In this document: one piece after another, positions 34,893 to 56,045 of the stretch
Numbering within the stretch: position 1 is the first letter of the stretch
How the letters are laid out: every line of letters starts with the position of its first letter
Assembly: GCA_964510105.1 (NCBI GenBank)
Contig: CAZEAI010000008.1
Location: 6,923 to 70,922, forward strand
Length of the DNA stretch: 64,000 bases
Direction of reading: 5' to 3'
DNA from: an uncultured bacterium
Lineage (GTDB): Bacteria > Latescibacterota > MWCZ01
Position numbers and translations under genes: made by a program
Notes under the pieces: model-generated
Databases searched by the model: none
What the model was told of the DNA's origin: nothing
What the model saw: the letters and a program-made list of their open reading frames with translations, nothing else

Positions 34893-35405
34893 ATGTCCCT
34901 CCGCCGCCTGTTCCCGTTCGTCGTCCTCGCGCTCTTGACATCACGCTCCCACGGCCAGGAGGCTTTTCGCGCCGCCCCGGTGGAGGAGCAGATCTCGATT
35001 GTGCAGGACATCGCGATCGCTGAACACACTCCTTCGATCAGAAATGCCTCCGTCACCAAAGACGGCCAGTACGTCGTTTCCCTGGACAACTACAACTACT
35101 ACAGCCTGTGGAGCCTCGGCGACGGCGCCCGGCTTCGCTACGAGTTCCTCGATTACGAGGACTACGAAGCGCAGGCGATGGCGATGTACCCGAACGGGTC
35201 TCATTTCGTCACCTTCGACACCCGATTCTCGGCCGAGACCCAGCGACCGGGCTTCGGCGTGCGTCAGTATCGACCCCACGACGGCAGTCTCGTTCGCACC
35301 CATTCGGGAGATTGGGGCGAACTCGCCGTCTTCGGAACGGTGTGGCGTGCCGCGGCCATCAGCGCCGACTGGCAGTATTTCGCCGGCGCGGTCAGGTCAA
35401 CGTAG
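34893..35405 (+). CDS. N-terminal fragment of a giant WD40/Fn3 T9SS cargo protein (signal peptide plus the first WD40 blades)
   Basis: AAGGAG RBS and signal peptide MSLRRLFPFVVLALLTSRSHG. The WD40-like motifs (TKDGQYVVSL, ISADWQYFAG) continue in the next segment in another frame. Confidence 0.5.
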   Translation: MSLRRLFPFVVLALLTSRSHGQEAFRAAPVEEQISIVQDIAIAEHTPSIRNASVTKDGQYVVSLDNYNYYSLWSLGDGARLRYEFLDYEDYEAQAMAMYPNGSHFVTFDTRFSAETQRPGFGVRQYRPHDGSLVRTHSGDWGELAVFGTVWRAAAISADWQYFAGAVRST

Positions 35406-39985: not shown

Positions 39986-41527
39986 TCGGCGGACCTGCAG
40001 GACAACGGACCGGCCGAGGTGGCGGGCCTGTCGTTCACGACGTCCGCAAGCGCCGATGTCGATGCACCGACGATCGCCGGAATGGACGTGTCGGCGCTCG
40101 GTGACATCTCCGCGAAGATCGTCTGGACGACCAACGAACCGTCCGACAGCTTCGTGGAATTCGGAACGACGACGGCGCTCGGACTGGCGGAGGGCTCGGA
40201 GGAGACGGTGACGGACCACGAGGTGTGGCTGACGAACCTCGAGCCGAACACCGAGTACCATTTCGCGCCGACCTCTACCGACATCGCCGGCAACGACGCC
40301 TCCGAGCCGACCGACGCGTTTAGGACCCTGGCAGCGCCTGAGAGCGATCCGCCCGACGCGCCGCTCGGCGTGGACGCGGTGCCGGGAGACCAGGCGGTCC
40401 TCGTGACGTGGAACGCTGTAGCCGACGGAGACGTGGCGGGATACAATGTCTACCGTACTCCCGATGTGCTGGTGGCCACGCTCCTTCAGGACACAGTTCA
40501 CATCGAGGACGGGCTCGACAACGGAACGACGTATACCTACCAGGTGCAGGCGGTGGACGAGTTCGGTAACGAGAGCGCGCTCTCCACGGTGACCGGCGCG
40601 GCAACACCGGCCCCATCGAACGTTCCGTCGGCCCCGACCGCGTTGTACCCCACCGAAGGCTCCAGCGACGCGCTCCAGCCGTATCTGACGGCGGAACCGG
40701 CCGAACCATCCGCATCGCGGCCGGATGCGGAACTGGTGTACACGTTCGTGATCGCGCGCGACGCCGAGATGTCGGACATCGTCGCAACGAGTACACCGAC
40801 AGCGAAGCTCCCCGGCTATCGCCAGCCCTGGTGGAAGCTGGCAGTGATCGAGCTGGAGCATGACAGCACGTACTACTGGGCGGCGGCAGCCTCGGACGGC
40901 GTCTTCCGGGGGAGCCTGGGAACGCCGAACAGCTTCGTCGCGGACAGTTCCGCGGAAGCGGTACTCACCGACGTTGCGCTTGCGACCTTCGCCGCCACCC
41001 CCAACGCGCAAGGGATCACGGTGGAATGGTCCGGAGCCGAGCCCAACGACCGGTTCGTCGTGCTGCGATCCACTGAGGAGGACGGCCCGTCATCGCCGAT
41101 ATCGGGCTGGCTCACCGGGGAAACGTCGCACGAGTTCACGGACATGGCGGTTACCGGCGGCAGGGAATACTACTACCGACTGCAGCGCGTGTTCGCTTCC
41201 GGCGCAACTCACGGGTATGGACCCGTATCGGCCATCGCTTCGTTGCCGGACCGGTTCGCGCTCACCGGCGTCGCGCCGAATCCATTCAACCCGACGACGG
41301 TCATTCGGTTCGACGTCCCACGCGCCGAACCAATGCGGCTTGACATCTACAACGCCGTCGGGCAGAAGGTGCGGACACTCGTTGACGGCATCCTCACGCC
41401 GGGCGTACACGCTCGAACCTGGGACGGATGCGACGATACGCTGCGTGGACTCGGATCGGGCACCTACTTCATCAGGATGGAGGCAACACAGTACACAAAG
41501 ACGATCAAGGTCACCATGGTGAGGTAG
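39986..41527 (+). CDS. C-terminal segment of the giant repeat protein: Fn3-like modules plus a T9SS (Por) C-terminal sorting domain
   Basis: This lies in the same frame as 35381-39985, separated only by a TGA at 39983-39985. It ends with ...PNPFNPTTVIRFDVPRAEPMRLDIYNAVGQKVRTLVDG...GTYFIRMEA..., the TIGR04183-type T9SS CTD. The first ATG is at 40019. Confidence 0.55.
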   Translation, partial: SADLQDNGPAEVAGLSFTTSASADVDAPTIAGMDVSALGDISAKIVWTTNEPSDSFVEFGTTTALGLAEGSEETVTDHEVWLTNLEPNTEYHFAPTSTDIAGNDASEPTDAFRTLAAPESDPPDAPLGVDAVPGDQAVLVTWNAVADGDVAGYNVYRTPDVLVATLLQDTVHIEDGLDNGTTYTYQVQAVDEFGNESALSTVTGAATPAPSNVPSAPTALYPTEGSSDALQPYLTAEPAEPSASRPDAELVYTFVIARDAEMSDIVATSTPTAKLPGYRQPWWKLAVIELEHDSTYYWAAAASDGVFRGSLGTPNSFVADSSAEAVLTDVALATFAATPNAQGITVEWSGAEPNDRFVVLRSTEEDGPSSPISGWLTGETSHEFTDMAVTGGREYYYRLQRVFASGATHGYGPVSAIASLPDRFALTGVAPNPFNPTTVIRFDVPRAEPMRLDIYNAVGQKVRTLVDGILTPGVHARTWDGCDDTLRGLGSGTYFIRMEATQYTKTIKVTMVR

Positions 41528-42601: not shown

Positions 42602-42760
42602 AGGGGGCTGAGCGACCGCATGGTGCGGACGGCGACCCCTGGCCTCGGCGAAAACAGTGGCGTCGGAGGGTTGACGCGTGCCGCTATGGCGAATCTCGCA
42701 CCGGATCAGCTCAACACAGGCTGCGTAGAGGTTAGGGACACTCTCAGAGGAGGGCGTACG

Positions 42761-43243
42761 ATGCGAGCGAGACAGACTTGCTGGATTGCCGTCGGGGTCG
42801 GCCTGATGTCCATGGGTTGCAGCGCGACGGGGATGGCGGACCGCGATGCTTTCGAGGCGGCAGCAAAGGAGTTGGCTCAGGACTACTCCGTGGCCGTGGA
42901 TAGTGGAGATGTGAATCTCTATGTCACCCATTTGGACGACAACGCGATATACATGGCGCCAGGCGCTCCGGAACACAGTGGGCGGGCGGCTGTCGGAAGA
43001 GCGTTGGGAGAGTGGTTCGCGGCAGTGAATTTCGAGGAATTCGCCGTCAACCTTGAAGAGTTCGAGGTGTTCGGTGATTTCGGCTACATCCGTGGCACGT
43101 ACTCCTGTCTCACGATCCCATGGGCAAGTGGGGACACAACTCGGTTTGAGGGCAAAGTCCTGAGCATCCTGAGACGGCAACCCGACGGTTCCTGGAGGAT
43201 CTACCGCGACTGCTTCAACTCGAACGGGCTTCCGGCTATCTGA
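42761..43243 (+). CDS. NTF2-like (DUF4440/SnoaL-type) lipoprotein
   Basis: Signal peptide with MSMGCS. The C-terminal ...RQPDGSWRIYRDCFNSN motif is shared with the 48597-51033 paralogues. Confidence 0.5.
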   Translation: MRARQTCWIAVGVGLMSMGCSATGMADRDAFEAAAKELAQDYSVAVDSGDVNLYVTHLDDNAIYMAPGAPEHSGRAAVGRALGEWFAAVNFEEFAVNLEEFEVFGDFGYIRGTYSCLTIPWASGDTTRFEGKVLSILRRQPDGSWRIYRDCFNSNGLPAI

Positions 43244-43452: not shown

Positions 43453-46400
43453 GTGGATACTCAACGGCGAGCAGACGACGCAACTCTGGTCGGGCGTTGC
43501 CTCGACGGTGACCGCGAGGCGTTTGCCGGGCTCGTGCAGGCCTACGAGCAGACCGCCCTCGCGACGGCGATGGCGTACGTCGGCAACTCGGACGACGCGG
43601 GAGACGTCACCCAGGACGCCTTCGTCACGGCCTTCACGTCGATCGGCGATCTACGAAACCCGGCGCAGTTCGGGAGCTGGTTCCGACGAATCGTGCAGCG
43701 GCACGCGCTTGAGCGTGTACGCGATGCCGGACGAAGCACCCCTCTCACCGACGAGCACGGCGCCACACCCCCGCCCGCGTCGCCGGATATGCCGCAGACA
43801 TCGTTCTCCGCCGACGTGTCGTCCGCCGTGCAACAGCTTCCGATGGCATACCGCGACATCGTCCTGATGTATTACCTCAACGACTTGTCCTACCGCGGCA
43901 TCGCGGAGATCATGGACCTGCCGGAGTCGACGATACGGAGCCGTCTGCGAACGGCACGGCGAAGGCTGAAAGGCGTCCTGCCCAGACAAGGCCGCAATCG
44001 CGGCGCCGACGACCACGGGCAGATCCGCTCGGCGATTCAGAAGTCGGTAGGCAAGCGCCACTATCGCGACGCTCTCGAACGCCTCCTGTCGGCCGGAATG
44101 GAGCACATACGCGATACGCTCTCGGATGAGGAACAGGAGCTGTTCGGACGGAACGTCGAGACGATCCTCTCGCACGTAACCGGCATCGAGGACGAAAGCC
44201 CGTGCAGAGCGGATTGGGGGGAGGCGCCCGACGTCGAGGGATTCGTCGGGCGCGCGGAGGAACTCGCGACGTTGCGCACGTGGATCGCGGACGAGCAGTC
44301 GCGCCTGATTGCCGTCATCGGTATGGGTGGAATCGGTAAGACAGCACTCGCGGCAAGAGCAGCCAGGATCGTCGCAGGCCAGTTCGAGTGCGTCTTCTGG
44401 CGATCGCTGGTGAACGGACCGCCGCTTTCGAATGTGCTCACTGAGTTGATCGGGCACCTTCTTGGCGAGTTCAGCGTGCCACGCTCCGATCGGATCGACG
44501 AGCAGATCCGACGCGTCATGGAGTACCTGCGGTCCCACCGCTGCCTCATCGTGTTGGATAACGTCGAGGGAATACTGGAGGCCGGCGCCGCCGGTCGCTT
44601 CCGCGAGGGATACGAAGGTTACGGGCAACTGATACGACAGTTCAGCGAGTGCCCTCACCAGAGCACGGCGCTGCTCACCAGCCGTGAGCGGCCGCGCGAT
44701 TTCGCTCTTGTGGAGCGTGTTGACGGAACCGAACTGCACGCCTTCGAGCTGAAAGGCTTGGATGGCGACGCCGCACGGGAGCTTCCGGGCCTGGAGAGCA
44801 TTGCAGCATCGGACGACGACTGGCAGACGCTGGTGGAGCATTTTTCCGGCAATCCGCTCGCTTTGAGGCTGGTGGCGGAGAAGGTGTTGGACCTGTTCGG
44901 GGGAGATCTGTCACACTTCCTCGCGGCCGGACTTCCGCTGTTCGACGACGTGCGCGACATACTCGATCGGCAGTTCGAACGCCTGACGCCGCTTGAGCGT
45001 GACGTGATGTGCTGGCTGGCGATCGTACGGGAGCCGGTAACTCCGGATGAGATCCGCGTACGACTGGTTCCGGCCGTGTCGGCGAGTGAGCTTCTCCAGA
45101 TCATGCACTCCCTCAGTCTGCGAACGCTCGTGGAGCACCGTTCGGGTACGTTCCTTCTGCAGAACGTCATCACCGAGTACGTTACCGACCGAATCGTCGA
45201 ACAGGCGGCCGGCGAAATCGCGGCGGGCCTGGTGACTCTCCTGGATACCCACCCGCTGACGATGGCAACGGCGAGACCCAACGTGAGAGACGCACAGCGG
45301 CGTCTGATACTGTCGCCCGTCGGCCTTCGCGTGGTGAACGAATTCGGCCCGAACGCCGTGGAAGAAGCGCTGAAGGCAACCGTCGATTCGCTTCGTGCCG
45401 GCGACGCGCTCCCGAACGGGTATGCCGCGGGCAACTACTTCGACCTCGTGGCTCATCTCTTCGGCGAGGTGGTCGGCTGGGATTTCTCGCACCTCTCGGT
45501 CCGTCAGGCGGACCTGACCAGTGCACACGTGCACGACACCAGCTTCGCGCACTCCGTGTTCGGCGAATGCGCGCTTCAGCACGCACATGGCAACGTGGAT
45601 TGGGCTGAATTCAGTCCCAGCGGCCGGGAGATAGCGATCTCAGCGTTCGGACGACTGGAAACGCGATCGTTCCCGGGCCTGGAGCCGCTCAGCGCCGATT
45701 GCACGGAGGGTGTACGGTCGGCGACGTACACGACAGACGGTCGCCTCCTCGCCATCCGTCTTGAGCACGCGGAGAGTTGGCCGGAAGCAGCCGATCGCTA
45801 CTCGCCTCGACGGATCGATGGTGGGACCGGTAGCAGATGGCATAACTCTGTGATGGATGTTGCATCTGGAGCGGCCCTGTTGGAATACGATGTGCAGTGG
45901 ATGAATATCGGCTGCCTATGCCCTTCCGGCAGGCTACTCGCCCACGACGACATCGACTTCACCATCAAGGTGCTCAACCTGGAGAACAAGGAGTGCGTCG
46001 CGACGCTGCCGAGCAGCGTAGGCCGCCTCTCTCAGCACGGACTGGCATTCCACCCGGACGGTGAGATGCTGGCAACCTGTGGCTACGACGGATCGGTCAG
46101 GGTGTGGGATGTTCGGTCAGCCGAATGCAAATGGACGTCCGAGCAACAAGGATGTAGCAGAATCGCATTCACCCCGGACGGCGACAAGCTTGCTATCTCC
46201 GATACCCACAGCCATCGGACTCGGTTCATGGACGCCGATTGCGGTACGTGTCGAGGCACCATGGAGGCGGCTCTGCTGTCGTTCCATCCCGACGGCAGAA
46301 CGGTGGCCGGTCACGATTCGGCCAACCGCATCGTGATCTGCGCCGTCGATACCTCCGATCTCGCGGCGACATTCCGAAGCGAAACGGGGATGGTGACGGC

Positions 46401-48279
46401 CGCCTCGTTCAGCCCGGATGGACGGTACTTGTTGGTGGCGGAGGAGCCGGGCCTGCTCCGCGTCTGGGATCTGGAGACGGGGCAAAGCCTGAATTCGTCA
46501 CAGGGAAACCGGCACGCGAACGAGCCGAGGGCCGATATCGACCCAACCGGAAGACTTGTGGCCGTAGGTGAGGAAGCGGGCCAGGTGCATGTCTGGGACG
46601 TATCGGCGTCGCGCGTCGTCACGACACTGCGTGAGCGAGAGGCCCTGCTATCTGCGCACGAGTTCACGCCCTCGGCAAGCTCTCCGTCTGAACGCGACTG
46701 GCTCAACATAGATGAAGAGTGGAGAGTCTACGATGAAGACTCGGAACTATGCATCAACACAGCGGATGGGAGTCTGCGACGACAGACGCACCGAATTGCC
46801 TCGCCTGTACGCGACGTGGTTTTCAGTCCGGACGGATCGCTTGTGTCGGGCGCGGATCCGGCGGACCGGGGATTCAGGGCATGGCACGTGAGCACGGGAG
46901 AGTGCGTTGGCTGGTACAACAGATCGCATGCCGTCCGCTATGTCTGTTTCGCGCCGAATAGCTCGCTCGTCGCCTGTCACACGACGGATGACGAGGCCGA
47001 ATATCCGACAACGATCTGGAATTGTCGTACCGGGCAGCTCGTTCGTGGGCTCCCGTGTCACTCGTGGCATATGGCTTTCACCCCGGACGGCAGAACCTTC
47101 GCGGGAGCGACCTACCGCGACGGGGAATTCGTCATGAACCTGTGGGACGTTTCCTCGGGTGAGCGACGGCTGTCCCTCGAAGCGCGGGAGTGGATAACGT
47201 ATTTCTGGCTCTACAGCGTGACCGGATTCAGCGCGGACGGGAGACTGCTGGGTACGTGTCTGGGCGGCCCGAACTACAGGGGAGCCATCGTGTGGGATAC
47301 GGCTGTAGCTGAGCCGCTGCTGAAGGTGCCCGGCAGCAAATACCTCAGCTTCCTCGAGAACGACCGAGTGTTGGTTCGCGGCGGGATGGAAGGCCAGACG
47401 GTGTCGGTCGTGGACGTCCGAACGGGTGAACAGATGGACTCGTGGAACACCAGTATCACCGGCCCGACCAGAGCATTCAGCTCCGACGGCAGGATGATTG
47501 TCACGGCATCGGAGCATCAGCCGGGTGTATCGGTCTGGAATGTCGACGATGGATCCCACGTGTGCACGATTCCCCGGATTCGTCCGTACGATGGAACGAA
47601 CATCGCGCACGCGGACGGGCTGACGCCTGCCGAAACAGCGACACTGAAACGCCTGGGCGCCATCGAGCAAGAGGTGGGGCTCTCCCCTGCCGAGCCCCAG
47701 TCGCCGCCGCGTTCGTCGCCACGGGACCCTCTCGAACGACGATTCACCGCATGGGCAGGGGGACCGAGGGCGCTCGTGTCGGTCGTCTGCGTCGAAGCGG
47801 CCGATCGAACCATCCTGTCCGACCGGCTTGAGGGTAACCAGCGCGTCGAACGCATGCGCGCCCGGCACGCACAACGGCTGCGGGATCTCACCGGTCGGCA
47901 CCACGGGCTGACAATCTGCGACGACGGCGCGAGCGCTTCCATCGCTTTCCACACACCCACGGAGGCGCTGGAGTTCACGCGAGAGTGCCGTCGAGAGACA
48001 GAAGCGGACGGGATCAGGCTGCTTACCGGCATCCATGTGGAATCGATCAGGATCGGGAGCGAGGACCCCTTCGACCACCTTGCCACACACCTTACCGGGA
48101 TAGTCGAGAAGGCGAATTCGTCCGGGGTCTGGGCGAGCGACGAATACAAGGACCTCCTTGCGAGATTCGGTCCGAACGGCCTGCCGGAGCCGGTGTGGAT
48201 CATGCACCCCAACTGCCAGCTCAAAGGGCTTCCGGGGAAGCACAAGCTATGGTCGCTGACCGACGACGCGCCGGCCTGA
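43453..48279 (+). CDS. ECF sigma-70 factor fused to an NB-ARC/STAND NTPase, WD40 repeats and a C-terminal class-III-cyclase-homology-like domain
   Basis: Sigma-70 region 2 (AFAGLVQAYEQTALATAMAYVGNSDDAGDVTQDAFVTAF) and region 4 (LPMAYRDIVLMYYLNDLSYRGIAEIMDLPESTIRSRLRTARRRLKG). Then FVGRAEELATLRTW...IAVIGMGGIGKTALA...CLIVLDNVE...GNPLALRLV, the NB-ARC P-loop/GxP motifs. Then at least 10 WD40 units (FHPDGEMLATCGYDGSVRVWDV...). Then a roughly 170-aa C-terminal domain matching the cyclase pattern (...IRLLTGIHVESIRIG...VWIMHPNCQLKGLPGKHKLWSL). This is one uninterrupted frame. The start is set at the GTG at 43453 after AGGTGG; the exact start is uncertain (43372-43453). Confidence 0.65.
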   Translation: MDTQRRADDATLVGRCLDGDREAFAGLVQAYEQTALATAMAYVGNSDDAGDVTQDAFVTAFTSIGDLRNPAQFGSWFRRIVQRHALERVRDAGRSTPLTDEHGATPPPASPDMPQTSFSADVSSAVQQLPMAYRDIVLMYYLNDLSYRGIAEIMDLPESTIRSRLRTARRRLKGVLPRQGRNRGADDHGQIRSAIQKSVGKRHYRDALERLLSAGMEHIRDTLSDEEQELFGRNVETILSHVTGIEDESPCRADWGEAPDVEGFVGRAEELATLRTWIADEQSRLIAVIGMGGIGKTALAARAARIVAGQFECVFWRSLVNGPPLSNVLTELIGHLLGEFSVPRSDRIDEQIRRVMEYLRSHRCLIVLDNVEGILEAGAAGRFREGYEGYGQLIRQFSECPHQSTALLTSRERPRDFALVERVDGTELHAFELKGLDGDAARELPGLESIAASDDDWQTLVEHFSGNPLALRLVAEKVLDLFGGDLSHFLAAGLPLFDDVRDILDRQFERLTPLERDVMCWLAIVREPVTPDEIRVRLVPAVSASELLQIMHSLSLRTLVEHRSGTFLLQNVITEYVTDRIVEQAAGEIAAGLVTLLDTHPLTMATARPNVRDAQRRLILSPVGLRVVNEFGPNAVEEALKATVDSLRAGDALPNGYAAGNYFDLVAHLFGEVVGWDFSHLSVRQADLTSAHVHDTSFAHSVFGECALQHAHGNVDWAEFSPSGREIAISAFGRLETRSFPGLEPLSADCTEGVRSATYTTDGRLLAIRLEHAESWPEAADRYSPRRIDGGTGSRWHNSVMDVASGAALLEYDVQWMNIGCLCPSGRLLAHDDIDFTIKVLNLENKECVATLPSSVGRLSQHGLAFHPDGEMLATCGYDGSVRVWDVRSAECKWTSEQQGCSRIAFTPDGDKLAISDTHSHRTRFMDADCGTCRGTMEAALLSFHPDGRTVAGHDSANRIVICAVDTSDLAATFRSETGMVTAASFSPDGRYLLVAEEPGLLRVWDLETGQSLNSSQGNRHANEPRADIDPTGRLVAVGEEAGQVHVWDVSASRVVTTLREREALLSAHEFTPSASSPSERDWLNIDEEWRVYDEDSELCINTADGSLRRQTHRIASPVRDVVFSPDGSLVSGADPADRGFRAWHVSTGECVGWYNRSHAVRYVCFAPNSSLVACHTTDDEAEYPTTIWNCRTGQLVRGLPCHSWHMAFTPDGRTFAGATYRDGEFVMNLWDVSSGERRLSLEAREWITYFWLYSVTGFSADGRLLGTCLGGPNYRGAIVWDTAVAEPLLKVPGSKYLSFLENDRVLVRGGMEGQTVSVVDVRTGEQMDSWNTSITGPTRAFSSDGRMIVTASEHQPGVSVWNVDDGSHVCTIPRIRPYDGTNIAHADGLTPAETATLKRLGAIEQEVGLSPAEPQSPPRSSPRDPLERRFTAWAGGPRALVSVVCVEAADRTILSDRLEGNQRVERMRARHAQRLRDLTGRHHGLTICDDGASASIAFHTPTEALEFTRECRRETEADGIRLLTGIHVESIRIGSEDPFDHLATHLTGIVEKANSSGVWASDEYKDLLARFGPNGLPEPVWIMHPNCQLKGLPGKHKLWSLTDDAPA

Positions 48280-48390: not shown

Positions 48391-48495
48391 TGCGGTAAGC
48401 GACTTACGCACCTTTCGCGCTATACCCCCCTGGGGGTCGGAATGCCTCGACATGAGCACATCCAGCCACCGTACTCCATCTAGTAGGCAGCAGCG
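48391..48495. repeat. about 100-bp conserved intergenic element A with a CCCCCC-T-GGGGG palindrome
   Basis: About 75% identical to 51271-51360 (GCGACTTACGCA..TTTCGC.CTATACCCCCC(T)GGGGGGTCG.AATGCC...CATCC...CCATC). Confidence 0.5.
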
Positions 48496-48596
48496 GGCAG
48501 AGCAGCGGTGATTCGTATCGCCGTGAGAAGCCTCGTGTTGTACCGATTCGAACCAGATCAACTGGACACCCGGCACACACGCGGAGGAGGAGAGCA

Positions 48597-49085
48597 ATGC
48601 GCACGAAATCAGTGTGCTGGATCGCCAGCGGCATCATCGCCACCATCGTTGTTCTCGCGGGCTGCGGCGACGGCTCGGCGGACGCGTCGGGCGATGTGGA
48701 CTTCGGCGCAACTCTTGCGGAACATGCGGCGAAGTATGCCGCGGCGTGCAACGCGGGCGATGCGGACGCCTACTGCGCCTTACTCGACGAGAGTTTCACT
48801 CAGTTGCCACCAGGCGCTCCACCATTCATTGGGAAGGCAGCCGTCAGGGATGCGATAGGAGGGTTTTTCGAGGCATACGATCTCGAGGATTTCACGATCG
48901 AAACACAAACGTACGAGGTGTCCAGGGAATTTGCATGGAATTGGGGCACGTATTCCTATCGCACGGCTCCAATGGGTACGACCGATTTCGCTCCGTACGA
49001 GGGCAAGTACCTGAGCGTACTGAAGAAGCAGCCTGACGGTACCTGGTTGTTCTACATTGGCTGCTTCAACTCGAACACGCATTAG
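48597..49085 (+). CDS. NTF2-like (DUF4440/SnoaL-type) lipoprotein, paralogue 1
   Basis: GGAGGAGG RBS and lipobox VLAGCGDG. Conserved blocks ...AAACNAGDADAY...FAWNWGTYS...KKQPDGTWLFYIGCFNSN. Confidence 0.6.
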   Translation: MRTKSVCWIASGIIATIVVLAGCGDGSADASGDVDFGATLAEHAAKYAAACNAGDADAYCALLDESFTQLPPGAPPFIGKAAVRDAIGGFFEAYDLEDFTIETQTYEVSREFAWNWGTYSYRTAPMGTTDFAPYEGKYLSVLKKQPDGTWLFYIGCFNSNTH

Positions 49086-49248
49086 GGTAGATCGCGCCGT
49101 CGGCGATAGCACCAACGAAACGGGCGGGTCTCCTGAGATGGCAGCCCCGTACCGCCTGCACGGCCGACAGCGATCTGCGGAAACCGGAGCGACTGGGGAG
49201 TTCGTTCCGGCGCATCGTTCAACAGCTCCTCGAAGGGGAGGAAGAGCA

Positions 49249-49746
49249 ATGCGATCACGACTGACGCGTTGGATTATCAGCCGTATTGCGGGCAGCAGCG
49301 ACGACGCGACCACAGTCCCGACGACGGCGGAGACCGAGGGCTTCGAGACGGGCCCCGAGGAATTTGTGCGGGCCTTTGTGGCAGCGTGTAAGGCTGGGGA
49401 TCTGGATACCTACATGGCCCTTGTCGACAAGGACTTCGTCAGGATGCCCCCGGATGCTCCACCGATCGTCGGAGAAGCGGCGATCAGGGAGTGGGCCAAA
49501 GGTTTCTTCGAGACATTGGAACTTGAGGAATTCACGGTCGATAATCGCGAATCCCACGTGTTCGGCGATTTTGCCTGGTTCTGGGGCACGCACTACATTC
49601 GCTCGGCTGTCAAGGGACAGGAACCCTCGGTATGCGAGCATATCGACGGCAAGCACCTCACTGTTCTGAAGAAACAGGCTGATGGCTCCTGGGCGGTGAT
49701 CGCCGACTGCTTCAATGGAAACGCACCTCCTACTGTGCCAAACTGA
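49249..49746 (+). CDS. NTF2-like protein, paralogue 2 (lipobox Cys replaced: IAGSSDD)
   Basis: Same fold blocks as paralogue 1. The start is at MRSRLTRWIISRIAGSSDD, preceded by the GGGGAGGAAGAG motif shared by all paralogues. Confidence 0.55.
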   Translation: MRSRLTRWIISRIAGSSDDATTVPTTAETEGFETGPEEFVRAFVAACKAGDLDTYMALVDKDFVRMPPDAPPIVGEAAIREWAKGFFETLELEEFTVDNRESHVFGDFAWFWGTHYIRSAVKGQEPSVCEHIDGKHLTVLKKQADGSWAVIADCFNGNAPPTVPN

Positions 49747-49885
49747 CGCGGTGGGGGGGCATCCGAACGCGCCGGGCGGGCTGCCGTGCGGGTAGCTCCG
49801 GCCGCTCTCAACGTCGCACGGCGGTCAAGCGATCCACAGAGGCCTGCGCACCGTTCAGCAGCGTCTCGAAGAGGAGGAAGAGTAA

Positions 49886-50391
49886 TGCGAACGCAACTAG
49901 CCCGTTGGGTCACCAGCGGCATCATCGTCGTTCTCGCGGGCTGCGGCGACGACAGGGACAGCGGCCCAACGGCGGCCGAGATCGAAGCCTTCGAGGCGGC
50001 TGAGGTGACGCTTCCGCAAGCGTATGCCGCGGCGTGTAACGCGGGGGATGCGGACGCGTACGTCGCTCTTATCGATGACGACTACGTTCAACTGCCCCCT
50101 GATGCTCCACCGGTCATTGGGAAACCGGCCATGCTCGAGCGAATCAGACTGATGTTCGGGGCGTATGATTTCGAAGAATTCACCGTCGATAACCGCAAGG
50201 CGGAGATGTTTGGCGACTGGGGTTGGGTCTGGGGTACGCACTCCTATCTCCTGGCACCCCAGGGCACGACCGAATTCACAAAGTACGACGGCAAGCACCT
50301 GAGCATTCTGAAGCGGCAAGCCGACGGTTCCTGGCTGTTCTACGGCGACGCCTTCAACTACAACGCTCCCGCGATGAAACTGGCGCCCTGA
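49886..50391 (+). CDS. NTF2-like lipoprotein, paralogue 3
   Basis: MRTQLARWVTSGIIVVLAGCGDD lipobox. Conserved ...AAACNAGDADAY...KRQADGSWLFYGDAFNYN. Confidence 0.6.
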
Positions 50392-50523
50392 GCGAGCGTA
50401 CCGAAAGGCCGGACGCGACTCAGTGCACGGGTGGTCCCGCCCGTTCTCGACGCTGAGGCGGAGGGCGGGTCGCCCATACGACCGTCGCATCGGTTGGCTG
50501 CGCACTCGAAGGGGAGGAAGAGA

Positions 50524-51033
50524 ATGCGATCCCGACTGACGCGTTGGATTACCAGCCGTGTTGCGGGCAGCAGCGACGACACCACCGCCGTCCCGACAGC
50601 GGCGGATGTCGAGACTTTCGAGGCATTCCTTGCGAGGCTTGCGGTGGGTGCGGATGGGTATGCCGCGGCGTGTAACGCCGGGGATATCGACGCCTTCTGC
50701 GCCCTACTCGATGAGGACTTCACTCAGATGCCGCCAGACCAGCCACCATGCGTTGGGAAAGCGGCCGTTAGGGAGCGAATGGCAGGACTGTTCGCGGCAG
50801 TTGATCTCGAGGACTTCACGATCAACCACCAGGATTGGGCCATGTTTGGCGATTTTGCCTTCCTGTGGGGCACGTACTCCTGTCGCACGGCGCTGCAGGG
50901 GCAGACACCCCCGGTATGGAGTTCGTTCGACGGCAAGTACCTGAGTGTCGTGAAGAAGCAGACTGATGGTTCCTGGCTGGCGTACCTCGACTGCTTCAAC
51001 TCCAACGTTCCTGGAGCGGAATTGGCGCTGTGA
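50524..51033 (+). CDS. NTF2-like protein, paralogue 4 (lipobox Cys replaced: VAGSSDD)
   Basis: MRSRLTRWITSRVAGSSDD... and conserved NTF2-like blocks, with the same upstream motif. Confidence 0.55.
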   Translation: MRSRLTRWITSRVAGSSDDTTAVPTAADVETFEAFLARLAVGADGYAAACNAGDIDAFCALLDEDFTQMPPDQPPCVGKAAVRERMAGLFAAVDLEDFTINHQDWAMFGDFAFLWGTYSCRTALQGQTPPVWSSFDGKYLSVVKKQTDGSWLAYLDCFNSNVPGAELAL

Positions 51034-51270
51034 GCGAGCGTACCGACAGACCGGGGGGCTCCCGCGCATGGAGCCCCCCCGGTCTCCGTACCGCCCTTAC
51101 GCACGCGAGCCTGCCTGGCGCCGCATTCACCCGGCGTGCTCGCGGCGCCGTGACACCTCCTCCAACACCGCCTGACGCACTGATCGCGCCGCGTCGACGC
51201 GAGCTGCGGATTCCTCACGAACTGTCACGCCTCAATGAGAACCTCAGGGTTCCGTTCGCGCAGTCCAGTG

Positions 51271-51360
51271 TGCGACTTACGCAGATTTCGCCTATACCCC
51301 CCGGGGGGTCGCAATGCCCCGGTTCGGCCACATCCGGCTGTCCCCATCCATCTAACAGGC
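51271..51360. repeat. about 100-bp conserved intergenic element B (perfect CCCCCCGGGGGG palindrome)
   Basis: Paralogous to 48391-48495. Located between the last NTF2-like gene and the cyclase-homology ORF. Confidence 0.5.
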
Positions 51361-51437
51361 AAGCAATCACGGTCAACTGCCCGGACCGTGGGAGTCACAT
51401 CGCATCAGGGCGGGAAGATCGAGTTAGGGAGGCATCG

Positions 51438-52052
51438 ATGGCCTGCGATCGCGAATCGGGCGATCACGGATCGGGCGAAAACGACCTCAGCGTCGAGCCC
51501 GTGTCGAGCGGAATCGCGCTAGTCTCACTAGTAGCGACACTCCCCGCCGACCCGTCGGTCCTCGTCGCCCGGCTCGAAGGGAACGAGCGAATCGAGCGGG
51601 CACGCCGGGCGGTGGCGTCCAGGGCGAGCGACGTGATCGGGAATCACAGTGGATGGCAGGTCGCCGGTAACGGCGAATCGATCACGGCTGCCTTCGGAGC
51701 GCCATCGGAAGCGCTTGACTTCGCGCTTGAGCTGCAGTTCGACACCGGTTCGCGGCTCATCAGGCTGCGTGTGGCGGCGCACGTTGACGTCGTGGCAGAT
51801 CGGGGATCCGGCGTCGCCTGCGGCGACGTGGGACCGTACGACGACATGCTCGCCTTCACGCGGCAGTTGCTGCGGAGGAACGGCGGCACGGAGGTGTGGA
51901 CGAGCAACGATTTCAAGACTCAGATCGACCACCACGGCACAACGCGTCAACGAGAACTCGACTGGATGATGCGACCAAACTGCGTGCTCGACGGGTACGA
52001 GGGACGGCACATCCTCTGGTCGGTGAATAGCCGCGAGGCGGCGATTCCTTAG
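51438..52052 (+). CDS. stand-alone class-III nucleotidyl-cyclase-homology-like domain protein (degenerate)
   Basis: GGGAGG RBS. 205 aa. ...IALVSLVATLPADPSVLVARLEGNERIERARR...IRLRVAAHVDVVADRGSGVACGDV...DWMMRPNCVLDGYEGRHILWSV parallels the cyclase blocks (VTVLFADIVGFT / RIGIHTGxVV / xELKGK). It is paralogous to the C-terminal domain of the ECF-STAND protein. Confidence 0.45.
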   Translation: MACDRESGDHGSGENDLSVEPVSSGIALVSLVATLPADPSVLVARLEGNERIERARRAVASRASDVIGNHSGWQVAGNGESITAAFGAPSEALDFALELQFDTGSRLIRLRVAAHVDVVADRGSGVACGDVGPYDDMLAFTRQLLRRNGGTEVWTSNDFKTQIDHHGTTRQRELDWMMRPNCVLDGYEGRHILWSVNSREAAIP

Positions 52053-52167
52053 GCAGTTCGCTCTGCGAACTGCAAAACGAATGCGAGCGCCACGAGCGTT
52101 CGCCGCGCGGGCAGCCCCGCTCCACCCGTTCCTCCTCGGGGCTGCCTGCCATGGAAAGGAGTTCATC
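52053..52167 (+). promoter_or_regulatory. conserved intergenic element, copy 1: terminator-like hairpin, conserved spacer, then leader hairpin, upstream of a T9SS cargo gene
   Basis: GCAGTTCGC-tct-GCGAACTGC hairpin immediately after the stop codon. A conserved ACGAAxGCGAGCGCCACGxGCGTTCGCC spacer follows. A second hairpin GGCAGCCCCG-n17-CGGGGCTGCC sits 20 nt before the RBS. Confidence 0.5.
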
Positions 52168-53517
52168 ATGAACATGCGCCGCACCATCCTTCTGTGTCTG
52201 GGGATGCTGCTCTGCGCGGGAGTCCGAATCGCACACTCAGCCCCCGCCATCGCACCCGACTGGATACAAAGCGGCCATTCGAGCTATGTGTTATGTGTGG
52301 CGATAGACTCGGTTGGGAATACCATCGTTACGGGGAGCGCCGACCGCACGATTAAGGTGTGGGACCTGTCCGGCGGCAGGTTGCTGCGGACGCTCCCCGT
52401 TCCCGACAGTGGCGACGAGGGTCACACGGCCGGCGTACAAAGCGTGGCGATCAGCCCTGACGGGAGCACGATCGTCTCGGGAGACTGGGACCACACTACG
52501 AAGGTGTGGAACCTGTCCGACGGCAGGCTGCTACGCACGCTCATCGGCGGCAGAGGCGATGCGTGGAGCGTAGCTTTCGCCCCGGATGGTAACACGGTTG
52601 TCTCGGGCGGCTTCGATGCCACGATCAAGGTGTGGCGGCTGTCCGACGGCACCGTGCTGCGCATACTCAGAGGCCACACGAGCTACGTGACCAGCGTGGC
52701 AGTCAACGGGAATACTGTCGTCTCGGGGAGTGCCGATCGTACGGTCAGAGTGTGGGATCTGTCCGACGGCACGCTGTTGCGGACCCTCACTGCTTCAAGC
52801 TGCGCGGGCGCCGGTCATACCGCTTGCGTGGCCAGTGTGGCGATCAGCCCCGATGGGGACAGGATCGTCTCGGGGAGCGCCGACGGCACGATCAAGGTAT
52901 GGAATCCGTCCGACGGCACGCTGCTGCGAACACTCCCAGTCCCGGGCGGCGGCGACGCGGCACACACGGGTGGTGTCCGAAGCGTGGCGATCAGCCCCGA
53001 CGGGAACAGGATCGCGTCGGGAGGTCTCGACGCCACGATCAAGCTGTGGAGTCTAACCGAAGGCTCGCTGGAGAAGACCCTCGCCGCCCATGGGAACACG
53101 GTGTGGAGCGTGGCGATTAGCTCCGATGGCGGATCCATCGTGTCAGGTGGAGGAGACGCACGGGTGATCCGATGGGGTGTGTATCCGCCGCTCAAGACGC
53201 TGACACCGCCTAGTGCGGTAGAAGGGAATCCACGGCAAGCTCGTGCGACCTTGTCACAGAACGTCCCGAACCCGTTTAACCCATCGACGTCCATCCCGTA
53301 CTCGCTTGCGTCGGACGGCGTTGTGCGGCTCGAGTTGTACGACGCGATCGGCCGGCCGGTGCGGACGTTGCTGGCCGACTACCGCCACGCGGGAGAGCAC
53401 TCCGTCGTGTGGGACGGTCGCGACGACGCGGGTCGCGCGGTAGCGAGTGGCGTCTACGTTGTACGGATGGTGGCAAGCGGCTTCGTCACAGCGCGGAAGG
53501 TGACACTGCTGCGATAG
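52168..53517 (+). CDS. secreted WD40-repeat protein with a T9SS (Por) C-terminal sorting domain
   Basis: Signal peptide MNMRRTILLCLGMLLCAGVRIAHS. About 8 WD40 units (TIKVWDLSDGTLLRTL...). C-terminal NVPNPFNPSTSIPYSLASDGVVRLELYDAIGRPVRTL... T9SS CTD. Confidence 0.7.
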   Translation: MNMRRTILLCLGMLLCAGVRIAHSAPAIAPDWIQSGHSSYVLCVAIDSVGNTIVTGSADRTIKVWDLSGGRLLRTLPVPDSGDEGHTAGVQSVAISPDGSTIVSGDWDHTTKVWNLSDGRLLRTLIGGRGDAWSVAFAPDGNTVVSGGFDATIKVWRLSDGTVLRILRGHTSYVTSVAVNGNTVVSGSADRTVRVWDLSDGTLLRTLTASSCAGAGHTACVASVAISPDGDRIVSGSADGTIKVWNPSDGTLLRTLPVPGGGDAAHTGGVRSVAISPDGNRIASGGLDATIKLWSLTEGSLEKTLAAHGNTVWSVAISSDGGSIVSGGGDARVIRWGVYPPLKTLTPPSAVEGNPRQARATLSQNVPNPFNPSTSIPYSLASDGVVRLELYDAIGRPVRTLLADYRHAGEHSVVWDGRDDAGRAVASGVYVVRMVASGFVTARKVTLLR

Positions 53518-53645: not shown

Positions 53646-56045
53646 ATGATACGCACACTGACAACGCTCACAGCCACGCTGTTCGCGCTCGGCCCGCTCG
53701 CTGGGGCAAATACGGACGTCAGCGGCGAAATCACGACTACCACGTGGACCGCCGCAATGGGCCCCTATCAAGTCACCGACACGATCACCGTCCCGACGGG
53801 CAACACGCTCACCATCGAGCCAAGCGTGGATGTGCTCTTCGACGCCGACGTGCCGTTCGTCGTCGAGGGCGCGTTGGATGCAGTCGGCACCGAAGTCGAC
53901 AGCATCCGGTTCATCGCGGGCACCGCCGACGAGTGGGGCGGCATCCGCTTCAACGGCGGCGACTCAAGCACGATCCACTACGCGCGCGTCAGCGATGCAT
54001 TCACCCACGCGCCCTCTCCGTTTGTTGGTGGCGAAGGAGGCGGCATCCACCTGTTGAGCTCATCGCTCGGTCTGGCACACTCTGTCGTAAGCGGCAACAC
54101 AGTCGAGGGCTACGGAGGTGGTCTGTTCGCCGACAGCGCCACCGTCACACTCGACTCATGCGCGATCACGGGCAACGCGGCGAAGAAGGCCATGGCTGGC
54201 GGCGACGGCGGTGGCGTTTATGCGGTCGAGTCGACCGTTTCGTTAACTGGATGCGCGGTGTCTCAGGACAGCGCCGCTGGCGCTGGAGGCGGCGTACACG
54301 GCCGGAACTCGACGCTGTCTCTCGAGGCGTGCGACATCCAAGACAACGCCAGCCTGTCCACTGGCGGAGGGCTCCACCTCGTTGGGGGCACCGTCGGTAT
54401 GACGGTATGCAGTGTCTCGAACAACGACGCCGGAGGCACAGGAGGTGGGCTATACACCACTGGGGTCGACATGGTCCTGGCTGACTGCGACGTATCGGGT
54501 AACGCATCAGGCGCGTCTGGGGGCGGGCTGTGCGTTGCGGGAAGCGGAAGCGGTCTCACCCTGACCGACTGCACTGTGTCAGCGAACGTGGCTGGTCTCA
54601 ACGGCGGCGGAATGGTTCTCAACGGGGTTACTGCGACGCTCGCAGGCTGTGCCGTCGATGGCAACTCGGCAGGTACGGCGCCGGTCGCAGGCGGCGGCTC
54701 CGGCAATGGCGGGGGATTTTCCGCAAGGGGTGGGGCGATCACGCTCTACAACTCCACGGTGAACCGCAACACGGCAGGCAAATGGGGTGGGGGGTTCTAC
54801 ACCGGCGGCACGGCGGTCACTATGGGTGCCTGCGAGCTCCGGGGAAATGCGTCCTGGGGAGGGGCCCCGACCGATTTCTTCGGCGGCTCGACCGTTACGA
54901 TGACGAACTGCCTCGTGGCCGGGAATACTGCCTTTCTGCCAAGCGCAGGCCTGGATTTCCATGATGCCTCCGCGACGCTGGTGAATTGCACCGTCGTCGA
55001 CAATCGGTCGCTGGGCGAACCCGGTTGTACCCCGCCGGACAGCGTATGGGGAATCATAGGCGCCGCCGCCAGCAGCCCGGACCAGACGATCACACTCATC
55101 AACTCCATCATCTGGGGACACAGTGGGGACCACGGTCTGGACTACTGGCTATGCGGAGCAGAAACGGGCGTCTGCCCGGGGATCTGCATCCCAGGACCTT
55201 TCCCGCCTGGCGCGCCGACGACTGCGACCTACTGCGCCGCCGGGGCCGTCAATGTGGAAGGGTGGTGGTCGAGCGTGGGGAACGTCAACGCCGACCCGAT
55301 GTTTGTCGACACGATCGCGTACGCGCTGCTGCCGAGCTCACCGTGCATCGACACGGGGTCACATTACATCCTCGATGAGGACGGCTCCCCGTCGGACATG
55401 GGGTACACCGGCGGAGGGCGGTACGGGCGGTGCCAGGTGTCACTCGTGCCGGACACGCTGTACCGCGACTCCACTGACTTCGTTCGCGTCAGGAACGTCG
55501 GCGACGCGCCTCTCGGCGTGTTCGAGCCGGACCTTCCTGATTCGTTTGTGACGGACATGGTCTTCCCGCAAGCCGTTGAGCCGGACAGCACGCTCTACAT
55601 TCCGGTGACGTATACCCAGCGCGGCTACCATGAGAAGACCGCCGTCATCCATACTTCTGATCCGTGGACACCGGATACGGTGGTGCTGCTGAAGGGCAAG
55701 TGGCCCGTGGCGATAGCAGCAATCGCTCGCCCACCGGCGTTCGCGCTGTCGCCGAACGTCCCGAATCCGTTCAACCCGGCGACGCGCATCCCATATGCGC
55801 TCGCGTCGGACGGGGATGTGCGGCTCGTGCTGTACAACACCCTCGGCCAGCGCGTGCGTACGGTCGTGGACGAATATCGAAGCGCGGGCGAACACTCCGT
55901 CGTGTGGAATGGGCGCGACGACGCGGATCGGCCCGCGGCGAGCGGGGTGTACATCGTGCGGCTGACTCACACTGGGGCGAATCGGAACGATTCGCGGACG
56001 AACTCGAACGCAGTGAGAGTTCGCAGGGTGACGCTGCTGCGATAG
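53646..56045 (+). CDS. secreted right-handed parallel beta-helix (Pmp-like) repeat protein with a T9SS C-terminal sorting domain
   Basis: Signal peptide MIRTLTTLTATLFALGPLAGA. Dozens of GGG[LV]x / NxAxxGGG repeats of about 22-25 aa. C-terminal NVPNPFNPATRIPYALASDGDVRLVLYNTLGQRVRTV... CTD. Confidence 0.65.
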   Translation: MIRTLTTLTATLFALGPLAGANTDVSGEITTTTWTAAMGPYQVTDTITVPTGNTLTIEPSVDVLFDADVPFVVEGALDAVGTEVDSIRFIAGTADEWGGIRFNGGDSSTIHYARVSDAFTHAPSPFVGGEGGGIHLLSSSLGLAHSVVSGNTVEGYGGGLFADSATVTLDSCAITGNAAKKAMAGGDGGGVYAVESTVSLTGCAVSQDSAAGAGGGVHGRNSTLSLEACDIQDNASLSTGGGLHLVGGTVGMTVCSVSNNDAGGTGGGLYTTGVDMVLADCDVSGNASGASGGGLCVAGSGSGLTLTDCTVSANVAGLNGGGMVLNGVTATLAGCAVDGNSAGTAPVAGGGSGNGGGFSARGGAITLYNSTVNRNTAGKWGGGFYTGGTAVTMGACELRGNASWGGAPTDFFGGSTVTMTNCLVAGNTAFLPSAGLDFHDASATLVNCTVVDNRSLGEPGCTPPDSVWGIIGAAASSPDQTITLINSIIWGHSGDHGLDYWLCGAETGVCPGICIPGPFPPGAPTTATYCAAGAVNVEGWWSSVGNVNADPMFVDTIAYALLPSSPCIDTGSHYILDEDGSPSDMGYTGGGRYGRCQVSLVPDTLYRDSTDFVRVRNVGDAPLGVFEPDLPDSFVTDMVFPQAVEPDSTLYIPVTYTQRGYHEKTAVIHTSDPWTPDTVVLLKGKWPVAIAAIARPPAFALSPNVPNPFNPATRIPYALASDGDVRLVLYNTLGQRVRTVVDEYRSAGEHSVVWNGRDDADRPAASGVYIVRLTHTGANRNDSRTNSNAVRVRRVTLLR

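Follow-up and report, generated by a model that had tools for sequence, protein, structure and literature searches.

Does a small open reading frame that resembles the tail of a giant regulatory protein encode half of a split nucleotidyl cyclase, or a cyclase-like protein that works in another way? The question arises in a 64,000-nt stretch of DNA from an uncultured bacterium (the window), in which a stand-alone ORF and the C-terminus of an ECF sigma/STAND protein carry related domains. The first-pass annotation held that each copy has lost a different one of the two metal-binding Asp residues of class III cyclases. It suggested a heterodimer with complementary half-sites, like mammalian C1/C2, and as a fallback a non-catalytic dimerisation or regulatory role.

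The two genes

The genes run in the following order: a SnoaL-like gene, the STAND gene, a conserved element, four SnoaL-like genes, a second copy of the element, the small ORF and a WD40/FlgD_ig gene (Table 1). The small ORF and the STAND gene lie 3.2 kb apart on the same strand.

Table 1. Features of the locus, in window positions; residue numbers belong to the small protein unless STAND is named
Feature	Position	Strand	Basis or remark
Fifth SnoaL_2/DUF4440 copy	42620-43243		Pfam
ECF sigma/NB-ARC/WD40/pseudo-cyclase giant gene, 1635 aa	43372..48279	+	Pfam, NCBIfam
Sigma region of giant gene	~43516-43971	+	Pfam Sigma70_r2, Sigma70_r4_2; TIGR02937
NB-ARC match in giant gene	44290-44565	+	Pfam
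WD40 region in giant gene	~45895-47571	+	Pfam
C-terminal pseudo-cyclase domain of STAND protein, residues 1456-1635	47737..48276	+	BLASTP, AF2, Foldseek
Conserved element, copy 1	48398..48500	+	~120 nt past STAND stop, ~100 nt before first SnoaL-like gene
Four tandem SnoaL_2/DUF4440 paralogues	48597-49085, ~49249-49746, ~49885-50391, ~50524-51033	+	Pfam; interval between STAND gene and small ORF
Conserved element, copy 2	51271..51375	+	~65 nt upstream of small-ORF start
Small ORF, stand-alone pseudo-cyclase gene	51438..52052	+	204 aa + stop; ORF listing
CHD-fold core of small protein, residues ~25-197	51510-52028	+	AF2 fold
Metal Asp 1 (FTD): L35	51540..51542	+	STAND E1475; family alignment
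D38 of LPADPS, at Gly of GST turn	51549..51551	+	Column 27 of alignment
Substrate Lys: A76	51663..51665	+	STAND C1516; family alignment
Metal Asp 2 (KTIGD): E80	51675..51677	+	STAND A1520; family alignment
Substrate Asp: G132	51831-51833	+	STAND D1565
Transition-state Asn: A139	51852-51854	+	STAND T1572
Transition-state Arg: Q143	51864-51866	+	STAND G1576
Hairpin Lys: D185	51990-51992	+	STAND K1618
WD40 protein with FlgD_ig-like C-terminal tail	52081..53517	+	Starts 29 nt after small-ORF stop

The N-terminus of the giant protein is that of an ECF sigma factor: the NCBIfam model TIGR02937 (sigma70-ECF) scores 84.8 bits against a cut-off of 42.9, and Pfam Sigma70_r2 and Sigma70_r4_2 also match. 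An NB-ARC match (38.1 bits; cut-off 23.5) followed by WD40 propellers places the protein among the STAND NTPases. Its full sigma/NB-ARC/WD40/cyclase-like architecture was found in only three orthologue clusters (P0154, which is the window protein itself, P0005 and P0006); beyond these, the closest full-length relatives are cyanobacterial NB-ARC/WD40 proteins. When the STAND tail alone served as the query, a word-indexed search gave no match. The window also holds a second giant ORF (35108-39985), and WD40 repeats are the only part that it has in common with the STAND protein.

The small protein starts at an internal ATG (51438) of a longer ORF, 51030-52052, with a Shine-Dalgarno sequence (GGGAGG) 5 nt upstream. 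The identical 204-aa protein is present in public collections (P0001). Orthologue clusters P0002-P0004 (184-190 aa) are 59-67% identical to it, and locus L014 carries a fifth version. Orthologues occur in at least four other assemblies, and the frame is intact in five lineages. Pairwise comparisons among them give a dN/dS of 0.14-0.22, with dS at 1 or above; judged by this substitution pattern, the small gene is therefore real and under purifying selection. The STAND tail has a dN/dS of 0.27, and at the sequence level both domains are under such selection. The small-ORF clade is rare: it makes up four 90% clusters among 5.8 billion, and a scan of metagenome contigs returned one short locus.

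The paralogy of the two domains, which the first-pass annotation had noticed by eye, is borne out. BLASTP aligns residues 27-197 of the small protein with STAND residues 1467-1630 at 35% identity over 171 aa (E 4e-31), within a STAND domain of about residues 1456-1635, and 39 columns are invariant across the paralogues. The ordered blocks that it listed are also real: they are the beta1 strand, the RLR/IH strand and the terminal HPNCxLxGxxGxHxLWS hairpin. The ORF itself exists where it was placed, and encodes 204 residues plus a stop; the Shine-Dalgarno site, the orthologues and the low dN/dS bear this out.

Cyclase homology

Direct profile searches do not reveal the family. A Pfam scan gave no PF00211 (Guanylate_cyc) match even at E<=10 for either the small ORF or the STAND tail, and direct scans of the small ORF against Pfam, NCBIfam and PADLOC assigned it to no family. 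As a single sequence, the small protein retrieved from the PDB only Ma1120, at E 0.23. A profile of five sequences (A1) matched Ma1120 (4wp9) at E 1.6e-6 and the cyclase-homology domain (CHD) of Rv1900c/LipJ (1ybt) at E 1.1e-5.

An exhaustive hmmsearch of 1.84 billion representatives yielded 678 relatives at E<=1e-3, of which 291 reach E<=1e-10, mainly C-terminal domains of about 170 aa in larger proteins. Among 93 scanned relatives, 89 match PF00211 and 26 have WD40 propellers; individual members of the subfamily carry Roc or TIR domains, and canonical stand-alone CHDs of 170-250 aa are present as well. The NCBIfam LipJ/Rv1900c CHD model is matched by canonical relatives (E 6e-23), and the STAND tail gives a weak match to the CHD portion of NCBIfam LipJ.

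The predicted structures point the same way. AF2 models of the small protein (pLDDT 86.7, pTM 0.80) and of the STAND tail (pLDDT 91.3, pTM 0.87) both have the CHD fold, with a beta-alpha-beta-beta-alpha-beta core and a C-terminal hairpin. In Foldseek searches of the PDB, the top 50 matches of each model are all class III nucleotidyl cyclases, with target-normalised TM up to 0.84 (small protein) and 0.87 (STAND tail) and E 3e-10 to 5e-12; the top matches of the STAND tail are Ma1120 and Rv1900c.

Both domains are accordingly assigned, from sequence profiles and modelled fold, to the class III cyclase-homology domains, because the profile matches PDB cyclases, 89 of 93 relatives are PF00211-positive and the fold agrees. 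The PF00211 search suggested by the first-pass annotation finds nothing directly, whereas the homology that it was to establish is reached through the profile, the intermediate relatives and the fold. A lack of profile or structural similarity, which would have counted against the idea, is not what AF2, Foldseek and the profile return: all lead to class III cyclases.

Two consequences for annotation follow from these searches. PF00211 misses the clade of the small protein and the STAND tail, and the JGI name of P0004, "class 3 adenylate cyclase", would wrongly imply cAMP synthesis.

Catalytic positions

Class III cyclases draw both metal-binding Asp residues of a site from one chain; the Lys/Asp pair, the Asn/Arg pair and the hairpin Lys come from the other. 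The seven positions were read off the family alignment with the canonical motifs FTD(I/V)vGST, KTIGDS, D-x6-N-x3-R and LKGF as the ruler. In an HMM alignment to Ma1120, residues K101, D157, A164 and R168, whose catalytic roles are described (PMC4215837), fall on A76, G132, A139 and Q143 of the small protein, and the register is therefore independently confirmed.

The canonical set is almost entirely lost. The small-ORF clade has none of the seven residues, and the STAND tail has two (D1565 and K1618). STAND orthologues P0005 and P0006 keep three and two, respectively, including in both cases Asp at metal site 1. Neither chain has the two metal-binding Asp (small protein L35/E80; STAND E1475/A1520). 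The substrate-specifying pair, which is Lys/Asp for ATP and of the Glu/Cys type for GTP, is A76/G132 in the small protein and C1516/D1565 in the STAND tail, where the Asp alone is kept. The Asn/Arg pair and the hairpin Lys are replaced by A139/Q143/D185 in the former; the latter has T1572/G1576 with K1618.

In the subfamily at large these positions are well kept: the full D-K-D-D-N-R-K set is present in 88 of the 142 sequences that are complete at all seven positions (a number that includes the two window copies and the P0001 duplicate), and the rest mostly vary only at Asn. Metal site 1 is Asp in 132 of 145 other relatives, and the transition-state Arg is present in 140 of 145.

The pattern of Asp retention given in the first-pass annotation was out of register by two to three residues. 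The Asp that it took as the first in the small protein (D38 in LPADPS) and the one that it saw as shifted in the STAND tail (D1478 in VEAAD) both lie three residues past the metal site, at the Gly of the GST turn. What it took as the second Asp in the STAND tail (ICDDG) corresponds to D1517 and D1518, three and two residues before a metal position that is itself Ala. The idea of reciprocity survives in inverted form. Acidic residues are indeed reciprocal, with the STAND clade acidic at metal site 1 (E/D/D) and the small clade carrying Glu at site 2 (position 80 in all four small-ORF cluster representatives); the orientation is the opposite of the one proposed.

D38 and D1478 were also considered as a relocated metal ligand. 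This was rejected: the column in which both fall (column 27) holds Gly in 98 and Asp in 26 of 145 relatives, and those 26 canonical relatives have the true metal Asp as well.

No complete active site

Combining the two chains does not repair the losses. One heterodimer site would consist of STAND E1475/A1520 with A76/G132/A139/Q143/D185 of the small protein, the other of L35/E80 of the small protein with STAND C1516/D1565/T1572/G1576/K1618; both are incomplete, and in every possible homo- or heterodimer site four or more of the seven residues are missing. As far as the residues tell, a canonical active site is restored neither in a homodimer nor in a heterodimer, because both metal ligands must share one chain and are split here. 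We infer that neither the small protein nor the STAND tail cyclises nucleotides. Judged by its residues, the pair most likely acts by binding, not by cyclic-nucleotide synthesis.

It is thus highly unlikely that the STAND tail and the small protein together form a C1/C2-like cyclase with one working site, as the first-pass annotation had envisaged. Such an enzyme would be in keeping with the two paralogous CHDs in one locus, with the reciprocal acidic residues (site 1 is Glu/Asp in the STAND clade, site 2 is Glu in the small clade) and with two residues of the STAND tail, the adenine-specifying D1565 and the hairpin Lys K1618. Against it, the metal ligands are divided between chains although they are required on the same one, and no chain has an acidic residue at both metal sites; both copies have replaced the substrate Lys (by A76 and C1516), the Arg (by Q143 and G1576) and also the Asn (by A139 and T1572); each conceivable site is short of four or more of the seven residues; and neither copy matches a PF00211 or PycC model. 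An enzyme of another kind, in which Glu80 and clade-specific residues serve a different nucleotidyl-transfer or hydrolytic reaction, is likewise highly unlikely. Glu80 and the clade-specific L28, S30, E47, A60 and P89 are invariant, and palm-like folds in general host diverse chemistries; yet one acidic residue is left, the triphosphate-holding Arg and Lys are gone, and the CHD subfamily offers no precedent.

Loss of residues falls short of strict proof of inactivity, as Ma1120 has Ala in place of the Asn and is active all the same, so that Asn alone is dispensable in Ma1120 (PMC4215837). Residual metal or ligand binding may persist, given that E80 is strictly conserved in the small clade and that STAND orthologues keep the site-1 Asp. 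It is possible that a degenerate interface pocket, in which E80, D1565 and K1618 are kept, could bind a ligand without turnover.

Genomic linkage

The small gene and the STAND gene can be followed in related genomes, although known lineages number three to five and lie mainly on short contigs, which leaves synteny statistics thin. SnoaL-like genes adjoin small-ORF orthologues in L001, L002, L003-L006 and L014. The STAND orthologue P0006, on a 124.7-kb contig of JGI sample 3300072015, is followed by a DUF4440 gene and then, as second gene downstream, by a 184-aa gene that has no Pfam match. STAND and small-ORF orthologues co-occur in the same samples, among them P0004 (small ORF) and P0006 (STAND), which come from one sample. 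Judged by gene order, linkage between the STAND gene, the small ORF and SnoaL-like genes recurs in several uncultured lineages. Within the window, the first tandem SnoaL-like gene (48597-49085) has a lipobox-like LAGC, and the WD40/FlgD_ig gene is probably co-transcribed with the small ORF.

One MAG, SRP077602_co2_316, preserves traces of an older arrangement. On one contig the conserved element comes after its STAND orthologue, and a decayed small-ORF-like frame (L008, 10894-11220; pairwise E 2e-8) comes next. On another contig (L001) an intact small ORF is flanked by SnoaL-like genes, and upstream of it lies a 35-aa remnant similar to the extreme STAND C-terminus (E 2e-7). The pattern looks like a duplicated segment, comprising the STAND 3' end and the small ORF, that has decayed reciprocally, which argues for ancestral adjacency of the two genes. 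Adjacency is not obligatory, since the small-ORF copy beside the STAND gene has decayed in this second MAG.

The conserved element is non-coding, is about 100 nt long and, besides its two copies in the window, also follows the STAND orthologue in L008 and L013. It was considered as a structured RNA and rejected: it has no Rfam match, and its consensus fold is weak (-8.6 kcal/mol) with little covariation. No sigma-70-type promoter was found either.

Origin of the pair

A BLOSUM62 NJ tree of 147 domains unites the small clade, the STAND clade and P0007 in one monophyletic group, and with the catalytic columns removed they still group in 59 of 60 bootstraps, although long-branch attraction could inflate the monophyly of two degenerate clades. 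Both clades sit on long branches within a LipJ/Rv1900c-like CHD subfamily whose other members are canonical cyclases, often WD40-linked. They have in common the derived residues L28, S30, E47, A60 and P89, which are rare or absent in canonical relatives. The simplest history suggested by these sequences is a single degeneration event, then duplication, in which the STAND tail would have been excised as a separate gene or the small gene fused onto the STAND gene.

Two further ideas were set aside. A one-residue insertion (RLEGNE versus LGNE) had looked like a rare marker common to both clades, but 59 other relatives have the residue too. The small ORF as an orphan C-terminal cassette that recombines into the STAND gene was rejected, as 35% protein identity seems too diverged for homologous exchange.

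Proposed function

The small protein is probably a catalytically degenerate, stand-alone class III CHD, a paralogue of the STAND tail, that acts through dimerisation. The retained fold would serve the head-to-tail dimerisation typical of CHDs. It is probable that the small protein forms pairs with the STAND tail, or competes with tail-tail pairing, and that it would in this way tune the oligomeric or active state of an ECF-type sigma/STAND protein with its NB-ARC switch and WD40 sensor. The evidence favours the fallback of the first-pass annotation, a non-catalytic dimerisation or regulatory role, with the catalytic set lost and the fold kept. Dead enzymes recur as interaction modules; degenerate GGDEF/EAL domains are one example, and the inactive site in mammalian adenylyl cyclases is another.

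In a more specific form, which is speculative and on balance unlikely, the small pseudo-cyclase would be a partner-switch: its CHD heterodimer with the STAND tail would hold the sigma factor off or on, and the ~100-nt element would be the target promoter. If true, this would be a new form of ECF control, in which two dead cyclases take the part of an anti-sigma factor.

A role independent of the STAND tail is a real possibility, if an improbable one. The small protein would then form homodimers and serve the SnoaL-like/WD40 secreted-protein cluster as a scaffold or by binding a ligand, with no contact with the tail. The small ORF adjoins SnoaL-like genes more consistently than it does the STAND gene, the WD40/FlgD_ig gene begins 29 nt downstream, and the subfamily contains stand-alone canonical CHDs of 170-250 aa. 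What ties the small protein to the STAND tail nonetheless is their common descent, the STAND-tail remnant upstream of one small ORF (L001) and the small-ORF remnant downstream of one STAND gene (L008), and the element upstream of the small ORF, which also follows the STAND gene. That the small ORF has no function at all, being an orphaned and decaying copy of the STAND 3' end, is very improbable. Decayed fragments of both module types in a related MAG and the loss of all catalytic residues are what such a copy would leave, but five lineages have kept the frame open, dN/dS is 0.14-0.22 where dS is >=1, the Shine-Dalgarno site is good, the fold is confidently predicted and 39 columns are invariant across the paralogues.

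Should the two domains dimerise, as the preferred reading of a dimerising pseudo-cyclase holds, the locus would offer a compact model for a cyclase fold repurposed to protein-protein control of transcription, and a further mechanism of non-canonical ECF regulation. To our knowledge, no earlier account pairs a free-standing dead class III cyclase with a dead cyclase tail of an ECF sigma/STAND protein, and a limited literature search found no such pair.

Relation to known systems

The nearest solved structures are the CHD of Rv1900c/LipJ from M. tuberculosis (1ybt/1ybu) and Ma1120 from M. avium (4wp3 and others), which have the same fold and order of elements. Compared with class III cyclases (PF00211), both window copies lack the metal Asp pair, the substrate Lys and the transition-state Asn/Arg; the small protein also lacks the substrate Asp and the hairpin Lys.

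By sequence, the closest relatives form an uncharacterised CHD subfamily whose members have FxxWAG as a lead-in and HP(D/N)CxLKGFxGxHxLWS as a tail and are often fused to WD40, Roc or TIR domains; its canonical members match at E down to 1e-41. The window copies share with it the terminal W...HPxC...G.H.LWS signature and the association with WD40. Within this subfamily, where 88 of 142 sequences keep all catalytic residues, the two clades of the window are degenerate outliers.

Pseudo-heterodimeric cyclases (mammalian adenylyl cyclase C1/C2; soluble guanylyl cyclase alpha/beta) likewise combine two paralogous CHDs with one or more degenerate sites, and they provide a precedent for the use of a dead cyclase site in regulation. 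In mammalian C1/C2 and soluble guanylyl cyclase, however, one chain supplies both Asp and its partner the Lys/Asp/Asn/Arg, so that one site works, whereas here no site is complete; the two CHDs of the window are also encoded by separate genes 3.2 kb apart. On the residues retained, the pair consists of pseudo-enzyme CHDs attached to an ECF/STAND regulator, and is neither an active cyclase nor a complementary pseudo-heterodimer.

A link to Pycsar is slight. Canonical subfamily relatives match PycC models weakly (E 1e-7), neither the small protein nor the STAND tail matches the PADLOC PycC models, and the scanned neighbours (SnoaL-like, WD40, FlgD_ig) include no cNMP-binding effector.

Regulators of the mycobacterial Rv0386 group combine a cyclase domain, an NB-ARC-type ATPase, TPR repeats and an HTH, and the CHD of Rv0386 is catalytically active. 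Like the giant protein of the window, they unite a CHD and a STAND NTPase with repeats and a DNA-binding module on a single polypeptide. The window protein has the opposite domain order, with the DNA-binding module N-terminal and the CHD C-terminal.

Control of ECF sigma factors through extensions is described for ECF41, regulated via a SnoaL-like C-terminal extension, and for ECF57, regulated via WD40-like repeats (PMC8999054). The proposed tail-mediated control would fit this pattern, because both groups are regulated through C-terminal extensions. Like them, the window protein has an ECF sigma2-sigma4 core with a long extension that includes WD40, and SnoaL-like proteins belong to the system. 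It differs from both in adding an NB-ARC NTPase and a pseudo-cyclase tail, with a stand-alone paralogue of that tail nearby. In contrast to ECF41, the SnoaL-like domains of the window are not fused to the sigma factor; they are separate genes, at least one of which has a lipoprotein-type signal.

Conserved non-coding element

A conserved non-coding element of about 100 nt occurs in four distinct versions across the window and related loci (see table). Its conserved blocks read GAyTTACrC..TTCGC..TACCCCCC(n)GGGGT, followed by GCrCAT and, after about 15 nt, CrTCTArTAGG. The element lies 3' of the stop codon of the STAND gene (the giant ECF sigma/NB-ARC/WD40 protein) and upstream of either the small pseudo-cyclase ORF or a SnoaL-like gene. 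An Rfam search with it gave no match, its predicted RNA fold is weak, and no sigma-70 promoter was found within it. The element may be a promoter or operator common to these genes, and it is possibly the target of the ECF-STAND protein.

Coordinates of the element, neighbouring genes and decayed copies
Feature	Locus	Position	Remark
Conserved element	window	48398-48500
Conserved element	window	51271-51375
Conserved element	L008 (STAND orthologue locus)	10629-10735
Conserved element	L013 (STAND orthologue locus)	from 7978
Conserved element	L001/L002/L007	~1798-1900	in L002 from 1415
SnoaL_2/DUF4440 paralogue	window	42620-43243	one gene
SnoaL_2/DUF4440 paralogues	window	48597-51033	four genes, tandem
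FlgD_ig-like C-terminal domain, large predicted protein	window	40019-41527
FlgD_ig-like C-terminal domain, large predicted protein	window	52081-53517
FlgD_ig-like C-terminal domain, large predicted protein	window	53646-56045
Second giant ORF	window	35108-39985	1625 aa
Small-ORF-like frame, truncated	L008	10894-11220	downstream of STAND orthologue
STAND-type CHD C-terminus, remnant	L001 (related-MAG contig)	268-375	35 aa; immediately upstream of intact small ORF

Neighbouring genes

The window contains five SnoaL_2/DUF4440 paralogues; a lipobox-like LAGC is present in the first of the four tandem genes. At other loci, too, the small-ORF and STAND orthologues have SnoaL-like genes beside them, and their proximity to an ECF-STAND gene deserves attention because ECF41-type sigma factors have a SnoaL-like regulatory domain fused to the sigma factor. 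Among the FlgD_ig-like proteins of the window, fn3 and phosphatase-N domains occur in one and a WD40 propeller in another; the two whose translations were inspected both end in ...VTLLR. Between the second giant ORF and the STAND protein, the matches listed are confined to WD40 repeats and include none to the sigma, NB-ARC or CHD (cyclase-homology domain) regions.

The STAND orthologue P0006, on a 124.7-kb contig (JGI 3300072015), is flanked by FlgD_ig-type proteins like those of the window. It is followed by a DUF4440 gene and then by a 184-aa gene, which has no Pfam match; its size fits the small pseudo-cyclase, of which it is a candidate homologue.

Decayed copies and canonical relatives

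Both module types, the small ORF and the STAND-type CHD end, are present as decayed copies in one related MAG. Taken together, the copies at L008 and L001 suggest a segmental duplication accompanied by reciprocal decay.

Canonical relatives of the CHD subfamily (e.g. P0009, P0022 and P0042) are fused to WD40 propellers, and examples carry Roc GTPase or TIR domain fusions. They share a distinctive tail, HP(D/N)CxLKGFxGxHxLWS, and match Pycsar PycC models weakly. They constitute an uncharacterised cyclase family, possibly related to conflict or signalling. The small-ORF orthologue P0004 is named 'class 3 adenylate cyclase' by JGI, a functional name that catalytic-residue analysis of the small-ORF family indicates to be misleading.
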